64,000 nt of DNA from sequence record MN850590.1, one strand, 5' to 3'. Below, in pieces: positions 12,691 to 13,213 of this stretch. The notes below the pieces were generated by a model that did not search any database, had not been told where the DNA came from, and worked only from the letters and a program-made list of their open reading frames with translations. A program made the translations under genes and the position numbers. The first letter of the stretch is position 1, and each line of letters starts with the position of its first letter. Source of the stretch: Escherichia phage moha.

Positions 12691-12698
12691 GTAATAAA

Positions 12699-12722
12699 TA
12701 CCTCCTATAAACGTGGGAGGTA
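12699..12722 (+). promoter_or_regulatory. SD-sequestering hairpin upstream of e with late-promoter-like loop
   Basis: ACCTCC-tataaacgtg-GGAGGT; GGAGG is the SD of e; loop carries TATAAACG (6/8 to late consensus TATAAATA). Confidence 0.45.
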
Positions 12723-12724
12723 TT

Positions 12725-13213
12725 ATGAATATATTTGAAATGCTTCGTAATGACGAAGGTCTTAGACTGACTTTATACAAAGACACTGAAGGCTTTTGGA
12801 CGATTGGCATTGGCCATTTAGTAACAAAGAATCCGTCTTTAGCCGTAGCTAAAGCTGAACTTGACAGAATGATCGGGCGTAAATGCAACGGTACAATTAC
12901 CCTTGATGAGGCTGAAAAGCTATTTAATGAAGACGTCGATAAAGCCGTTCGCGGAATCTTGGGTAATGCTAAACTTAAACCGGTATATGATTCTTTAGAT
13001 GCGGTTCGTCGATGTGCATTGGTCAATATGGTCTTCCAAATGGGTGTAGCAGGCGTCGCTGGTTTTACTAATTCTCTTCGTATGCTTCAACAGAAACGTT
13101 GGGATGAAGCGGCAGTAAATCTAGCCCAATCTAAATGGTATCGTCAGACACCTAATCGCGCGAAACGCGTAATCTCAACATTTAAAACAGGAACTTGGAA
13201 AGCGTATATATGA
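12725..13213 (+). CDS. e: lysozyme (endolysin) e
   Basis: 162 aa; MNIFEMLR...DEGLRL...TIGIGHL matches T4 lysozyme incl. catalytic Glu11/Asp20 region. Confidence 0.95.

Follow-up and report, generated by a model that had tools for sequence, protein, structure and literature searches.

The lysozyme gene e leader of Escherichia phage moha: a probable Mosigvirus counterpart of the T4 gene e temporal translational switch

The early mRNA of the T4 lysozyme gene e is described as structured and untranslated (PMC3014915, citing McPheeters et al. 1986, NAR 14:5813). Transcripts from either of two late promoters are missing the structure's 5' part and, according to the same account, are translated (PMC3014915, citing McPheeters 1986). 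That review also describes similar e leaders in related T4-type phages (its Figure 5A); in each, a late promoter lies where the 5' strand is encoded (PMC3014915). RB69 is very probably among the leaders of this figure (Uzan & Miller 2010, Figure 5A), as it stands in neither the 'no structure' nor the 'no gene e' list given there (PMC3014915). The T4 leader reads ttTATAAATAccttcTATAAATActtaGGAGGtattATG and holds two perfect late boxes in the context ttTATAAATAccttcTATAAATActtaGGAGG, one abutting the 5' arm of the hairpin and one in its loop. For T4, the start sites expected at e are missing from the supplement of a dRNA-seq preprint. The same design, a late promoter within a hairpin, is found in T4 genes 49, soc and I-TevI (PMC3014915), but the genes and sequences differ and these leaders are analogous, not homologous, to that of e.

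The late box spans positions -13 to -6 (PMC1524935). Among 50 T4 late sites, a perfect box is present at 32 and A at -13, the commonest variant, at nine (Geiduschek and Kassavetis, PMC2988020); the remaining sites mostly show other single deviations, and only two of the 50 deviate at more than one position (PMC2988020). The T at -13 is poorly conserved in RB69 and other relatives, where A or T is common (Nolan et al., PMC1524935). By cryo-EM, gp55 holds the non-template A at -12, -9 and -8 in pockets (PMC7892883). Late promoters also typically have an AT-rich stretch downstream of the box (PMC2988020).

The window, that is, the whole 64,000-nucleotide stretch of Escherichia phage moha that was analysed (MN850590.1), comes from a Mosigvirus (RB69-group T-even phage) genome and is reversed in orientation relative to the RB69 map. 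Positions 12232-13300 are 97-99% identical to dozens of Mosigvirus genomes. Two contiguous same-strand ORFs flank the leader:

12232-12690, plus strand: nudE (e.1), a Nudix hydrolase gene directly upstream of e; an ORF annotated as nudE or nudix hydrolase in RB69 and relatives.
12725-13213, plus strand: gene e, T4-type lysozyme (endolysin), 162 aa plus stop; translation MNIFEMLR..., annotated as endolysin or lysozyme in relatives.

The leader is followed by an ortholog of the T4 lysozyme gene and preceded by nudE on the same strand, both genes being annotated in RB69 and T4. The start codon of e is the ATG at 12725-12727. Its DNA is 99% identical to RB69 e, and its protein is 88% identical to e of two IMG/VR contigs (L015 and L016) whose e leaders are exactly those of T4. 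A terminator scan of the plus strand from 11728 to e (12725) returned no terminator-like site, while other tools call the e hairpin itself a terminator; transcripts covering nudE would read through into e.

From 12680 the sequence reads ccctcctataagtaataaatacctcctataaacgtgggaggtattATG. The elements of the leader are:

12681-12690, plus strand: first copy of CCTCCTATAA, formed by the last nudE codons (CTC CTA) and the TAA stop; an exact match, with no conserved regulatory element.
12686-12693, plus strand: TATAAGTA, a late-box look-alike by sequence match, with G at -8 and so lacking the A that gp55 pockets there.
12693-12700, plus strand: AATAAATA (-13 to -6), proposed to be the gp55-type late promoter box in use, on grounds of conservation, geometry and enrichment in RB69.
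12697-12705, plus strand: hairpin 5' arm AAUACCUCC, with the anti-SD CCUCC; folds, and is invariant in Mosigvirus except for C12701T, which leaves a G-U pair.
12706-12707, plus strand: where late transcription is predicted to begin, at box end + 6 or + 7, given a box at -13 to -6 (PMC1524935); in RB69 this corresponds to about 65707-65706, minus strand.
12706-12715, plus strand: loop UAUAAACGUG, containing TATAAACG (12706-12713), a degenerate counterpart of the T4 proximal late box.
12716-12724, plus strand: hairpin 3' arm GGAGGUAUU, consisting of the Shine-Dalgarno (SD) sequence GGAGG (12716-12720) and the spacer to the AUG; folds.

An earlier, sequence-only reading of this DNA had proposed that a stem of ACCTCC and GGAGGT hides the SD of e. 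Folding confirms the stem, with a helix of 9-12 bp against the 6 bp first suggested: ACCTCC (12700-12705) pairs with GGAGGT (12716-12721) inside a longer perfect helix of 9 bp, in which AAUACCUCC (12697-12705) is matched to GGAGGUAUU (12716-12724). With three weak inner pairs (U-G, A-U and U-G) added, the minimum free energy (MFE) structure reaches 12 bp and -16.3 kcal/mol. When dinucleotide shuffles serve as the reference, the hairpin scores z -2.7 in a 76-nt context (none of 200 shuffles folded as well) and the 35-nt leader z -5.9, and a chance hairpin is rejected. The SD is stably paired with the upstream anti-SD and lies wholly within the stem, with a probability of being unpaired of 0.000 in the early read-through RNA. 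The loop, TATAAACGTG (12706-12715), contains TATAAACG, as had been claimed for the near-late-box sequence seen there. A search of 12000-13500 against Rfam gave no match at E<=1, and Rfam holds no family for the e leader element.

Set beside the T4 leader, the locus shares an orthologous e with nudE upstream and an identical 3' arm, GGAGGTATT-ATG. The stem layout is likewise similar: in T4 it is AATACCTTC...GGAGGTATTATG with TATAAATA abutting the arm, and the window has the 5' arm AATACCTCC where T4 has AATACCTTC. The late box stands at the same distance from the 5' arm, the predicted start falls just past the anti-SD, and the early/late logic is the same. The differences lie in the boxes and in the strength of the stem. 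Whereas the upstream box of T4 is a perfect TATAAATA, that of the window is the A(-13) variant, and where T4 has a second perfect TATAAATA in the loop the window has TATAAACG, the box being lost. The window also has a C-G pair in place of a T4 U-G pair and a loop of 10 nt in place of 12 nt; because of these two changes its stem is the more stable (-16.3 against -13.3 kcal/mol). The comparison of the T4 and RB69 e upstream regions that the earlier reading had called for shows a layout shared with T4, and 12600-12900 is 99.0% identical to RB69.

The box that abuts the arm, AATAAATA, shares 4 nt with the outer end of the 5' arm and directly adjoins the anti-SD. It deviates from TATAAATA at a single position, -13, and keeps all three adenines pocketed by gp55 (-12, -9 and -8). 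Its 3' end lies 5 nt before the last anti-SD base, and the predicted +1 at about 12706-12707 adjoins the arm end at 12705, placing the predicted start 3' of the anti-SD arm. The earlier reading had called the late box imperfect on the strength of the loop sequence only; that judgement missed the conserved box at 12693-12700, which lay within the span it described. In the RB69 genome, seven of the 15 copies of AATAAATA lie 12-45 nt upstream of SD+ATG starts, as against 7.9% for 27 composition-matched permuted 8-mers used as controls (p=7e-5). These copies include the ones before e, gene 15, inh, rI and an internal-protein-like (IP-like) ORF. The consensus TATAAATA is upstream of gene starts in 14 of its 26 RB69 copies. 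The late transcription machinery is represented in the window by gp55 at 38481-39035 (99.5%) and the gp45 clamp at 43925-44608 (100%), both located by tblastn.

Some observations count against a promoter at this position. An HMM-based list of 31 predicted RB69 late promoters (Nolan 2006) contains no site at e, and the box, being absent from those 31 sites, was missed by formal promoter models. Directly after AATAAATA the anti-SD CCTCC takes the place of an AT-rich segment, and the promoter may be weak owing to this. The missing segment is not disqualifying, since the mapped upstream e promoter of T4 itself has none (CCTTC).

The comparison covered 23 distinct e leaders representing about nine genera; their sources are Tequatro-, Mosig-, Dhaka-, Winkler-, Marfa-, Muldoon- and Kanagawavirus along with unclassified IMG/VR contigs. 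A pattern scan of IMG/VR for Mosigvirus-type leaders yielded two contigs only, and GenBank phages were used for this group instead. The sequence [T/A/G]ATAAATA stands directly before the anti-SD in 23 of 23 leaders (T in six, A in 14 and G in three). In the 20 leaders that could be structurally anchored the box always ends 4-5 nt from the last anti-SD C, and the predicted start in the compared leaders is always the first or second base past the anti-SD. As judged from these alignments, the pattern shows the upstream, arm-abutting box, and not the loop box, to be the conserved and load-bearing candidate late promoter, in which the first base is free (T, A or G). In Marfa- and Kanagawa-type leaders (L006, L008, L023 and L031) the e late box has G at -13, apparently supplied by a TGA that stands directly before the ATAAATA core (…cATGATAAATAC…). 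This TGA may be the nudE stop codon, in which case the first base of the promoter would be common to the stop of the upstream gene.

The stem covers the SD in every lineage, and each of 11 lineage leaders folds better than its own shuffles (z -1.9 to -5.9). Four core anti-SD:SD pairs are kept in all 20 anchored leaders, the variants being U-G wobbles and one compensatory change from U-A to C-G in L033 (CCCC/GGGG). Around this core the helix is lengthened outward (AAUA/UAUU) in T4, Mosigvirus and Dhakavirus, and inward (UAUC/GAUA, UAUA/UAUA) in Marfa-, Kanagawa- and Winklervirus. A MAFFT alignment of the 20 leaders, when run through RNAalifold, gave a weak five-pair consensus and no compensatory change. 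The 5' arm falls out of register in the sequence alignment because the anti-SD begins 0 or 1 nt after the box, depending on lineage; a structure-anchored pair count, used in place of RNAalifold, identified one true double substitution. Formal covariation is thin, and the core pairs are in any case constrained by SD function. About 150 Mosigvirus genomes share the 91-nt leader at 95% identity or more. Some 151 records of this genus divide into 68 that match the window exactly over the 91 nt and 83 that differ by 1-4 bases; the substitutions avoid box, stem and loop except for one loop change and the stem change C12701T.

The predicted cost of opening the ribosome-binding site (RBS; 12712-12735) depends on where the RNA begins:

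Start 12600, read-through from nudE: 17.5 kcal/mol.
Start 12699 or 12700, TATAAGTA box: 14.5 or 13.6 kcal/mol.
Start 12706 or 12707, AATAAATA box: 5.4 kcal/mol.
Start 12719, TATAAACG box, SD truncated: 2.1 kcal/mol, the lowest.

A fall of about 5-15 kcal/mol from early to late RNA is predicted in 23 of 23 leaders when the RNA is started at box end + 6. Counting against a complete release, some alternative pairing of the SD with the early coding sequence is predicted in the late RNA, with a residual opening cost of 5.4-8.7 kcal/mol. The look-alike TATAAGTA was considered as a promoter and is probably inactive, having lost the -8 A (PMC7892883); a start from it (12699/12700) would not relieve the block, the RBS opening cost remaining at 13.6-14.5 kcal/mol. 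One of its four RB69 copies is upstream of a gene, and this is the e copy.

The leader is very likely orthologous to the temporal translational switch of T4 gene e, in its Mosigvirus form. This assignment is based on its anatomy, thermodynamics and conservation and on the genome-wide behaviour of the box; for the actual start site, the promoter activity and the translational block we infer by homology with the T4 experiments. Before replication, upstream-started transcripts passing through nudE would carry both arms of the 9-12 bp hairpin. The anti-SD arm AAUACCUCC would pair with the SD and spacer GGAGGUAUU, ribosomes would be unable to load, and no early lysozyme would be made. After replication, RNA polymerase with gp55, gp33 and gp45 is expected to recognise AATAAATA (12693-12700) and to start at about 12706-12707. 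The resulting late mRNA, devoid of the 5' arm, would have a free SD from which lysozyme could be translated. The arrangement proposed at the outset by analogy with T4 gene e, with translationally silent early read-through, is in this respect supported by the hairpin, the layout and the predicted RBS costs.

Several public Mosigvirus records annotate the same hairpin in another way, as an intrinsic transcription terminator of the nudE operon. In vB_EcoM_G2469 (GenBank MK327934, 66756-66779) a putative terminator of -12.0 corresponds to window 12699-12722, and in ATK47 (KT184309, 108323-108359) the same stem-loop is called a terminator by ARNold. With its GC-rich stem at a gene end and AU-rich sequence downstream, the structure does resemble the Rho-independent terminators that ARNold and TransTerm report in public records. 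Unlike such terminators, it lacks a U-tract: the sequence after the stem, AUGAAUAU, has three U in eight (tail AUGAAUAUAUUU), and a scan needing at least five T in 8 nt makes no call. Moreover the next gene has its ribosome-binding site in the 3' arm, which comprises the SD and spacer of e with the start codon immediately after it, and the stem always covers the SD across lineages whereas the tail varies (GUCCUAUG, GUAACAUG). Early transcripts of T4 are documented to run on into e (PMC3014915). Termination is on these grounds a very improbable role for the hairpin, and the TransTerm and ARNold calls in several public Mosigvirus records very probably mislabel a regulatory hairpin. Still more improbable is a role for the first copy of CCTCCTATAA as a backup or alternative anti-SD, in which CCCUCC (12680-12685) would pair with GGGAGG (12715-12720). 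The sequence-only reading had described a tandem duplication here, and the two exact copies (12681 and 12701) stand; they are separated by a 10-nt spacer, 20 nt apart from start to start, and are neither strictly tandem nor a functional duplication. The span given in that reading, which begins at 12691, leaves out the first copy. The repeat is exact, occurs exactly twice in the window where 0.12 occurrences are expected for this particular word, and the backup pairing would give six G-C-rich pairs. Direct repeats of exactly matching 10-mers at a spacing of 10-30 nt nevertheless number seven in the window, where a first-order Markov model predicts 2.0, and with close repeats in such excess statistics alone do not make CCTCCTATAA special. 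The MFE and centroid structures use the proximal arm only and never choose the pairing of 12680-12685. While 83 of the 151 or so Mosigvirus records depart from the window somewhere in the 91-nt leader, all six divergent leaders read (five from GenBank and the Av-05-type L013) are substituted at 12680-12682, at bases within the first copy or adjoining it; these changes would disrupt the backup pairing, and C12682A is present in five of the six. The first copy is nudE coding sequence that aligns to the homologous, non-repeat CCTCTTTTAA of T4, and nothing similar to it was found in the leaders of other genera. Judged by these comparisons the first copy shows no sign of selection or function, and a functional duplication is rejected.

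A role for the loop sequence TATAAACG as a functional or second late promoter, starting at about 12719 inside the SD as the proximal TATAAATA of T4 is thought to do, is unlikely, if less so than either of these. TATAAACG occupies the place of the perfect proximal box of T4, retains the gp55-pocketed adenines at -12, -9 and -8 (PMC7892883) and is invariant in the Mosigvirus leaders read, and RNA from 12719 has the lowest predicted RBS opening cost (2.1 kcal/mol). The invariance is explained by the near-fixation of the whole leader, and a start at 12719 would strip GGA from the SD. TATAAACG departs from the consensus twice, at -7 and -6, and more than one deviation occurs in only two of 50 T4 late sites (PMC2988020). 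Among RB69 copies of TATAAACG, one of 14 is upstream of a gene, namely e itself, and the other 13 are not. Only T4-type leaders carry a perfect box in the loop; Tequatrovirus KIT03 has TATAAACA there, Dhakavirus has TATACTCA or TATAATCA, and elsewhere the box is missing. A second promoter in the loop is a T4-specific feature not needed by the mechanism and is not found in the window, where TATAAACG is probably a decayed remnant of the second (proximal) late promoter of T4 and contributes little. A broader proposal is similarly doubtful: that the RB69 group either has lost the T4 proximal late promoter and draws all of its late lysozyme from one A(-13) box whose initially melted region is GC-rich, or uses TATAAACG as a working non-canonical gp55 promoter. 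If this were so, lysozyme dosage or timing may be set differently from T4, and if TATAAACG did work as a gp55 promoter the mRNA would have a truncated SD; either version, if true, would be a modest refinement of the late-promoter rules and not a new mechanism.

Interpreted as an ortholog of the T4 switch, the leader has a regulatory design that is already described, and the phage is an ordinary one from a well-sequenced genus. The importance of the finding hardly goes past annotation quality, since the mechanism is classic and its conservation in T4 relatives was reviewed in 2010. The practical points are the very probable mislabelling of the hairpin as a terminator, the probably too late RB69 e start described below, and the conserved upstream box with its free first base, which should be useful for building Tevenvirinae late-promoter models.

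In the RB69 reference (NC_004928) e is annotated from 65673 (position 441 of L002; 12740 in the window), which is the second ATG in frame (MLRND...). This is five codons downstream of the SD-adjacent, T4-homologous start (MNIFEMLR), and the reference start is probably mis-annotated, five codons too late.

The nudE gene (12232-12690) sits directly upstream of the lysozyme leader. In work reported in a 2026 preprint version (doi 10.1101/2024.04.04.588121), NAD-RNA is decapped in vitro by T4 NudE.1, and lysis comes about 15 min late with a catalytic mutant.

Gene 49 (endonuclease VII) is also present in the window with its known T4 arrangement, at 31431-31470 on the plus strand: TATAAATA begins at 31431, and a CCCUUA/UAAGGG stem sequesters the SD-like AAGG ahead of the ATG at 31468. 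The predicted RBS opening cost here is 14.4 kcal/mol for early read-through against 4.5 kcal/mol for late RNA (box end + 6).

Further AATAAATA boxes lie 21-29 nt before gene starts at 4982-5021 (plus strand), 19815-19851 (plus strand) and 63982-63953 (minus strand), where the genes are an internal-protein-like ORF (MKSYAEFLTE), rI (MALRAIAVIA) and a small minus-strand ORF, respectively. None of these three sites has a strong SD-sequestering hairpin. The boxes fit with A(-13) late promoters being common in phage moha. At 22906-22948 (plus strand), three overlapping late-box-like motifs (TATAAATA, AATAAATA and GATAAATA) fall within 20 nt and precede an 88-aa ORF (MKKLVIGLFA) whose N-terminus looks like that of a signal peptide or lipoprotein.
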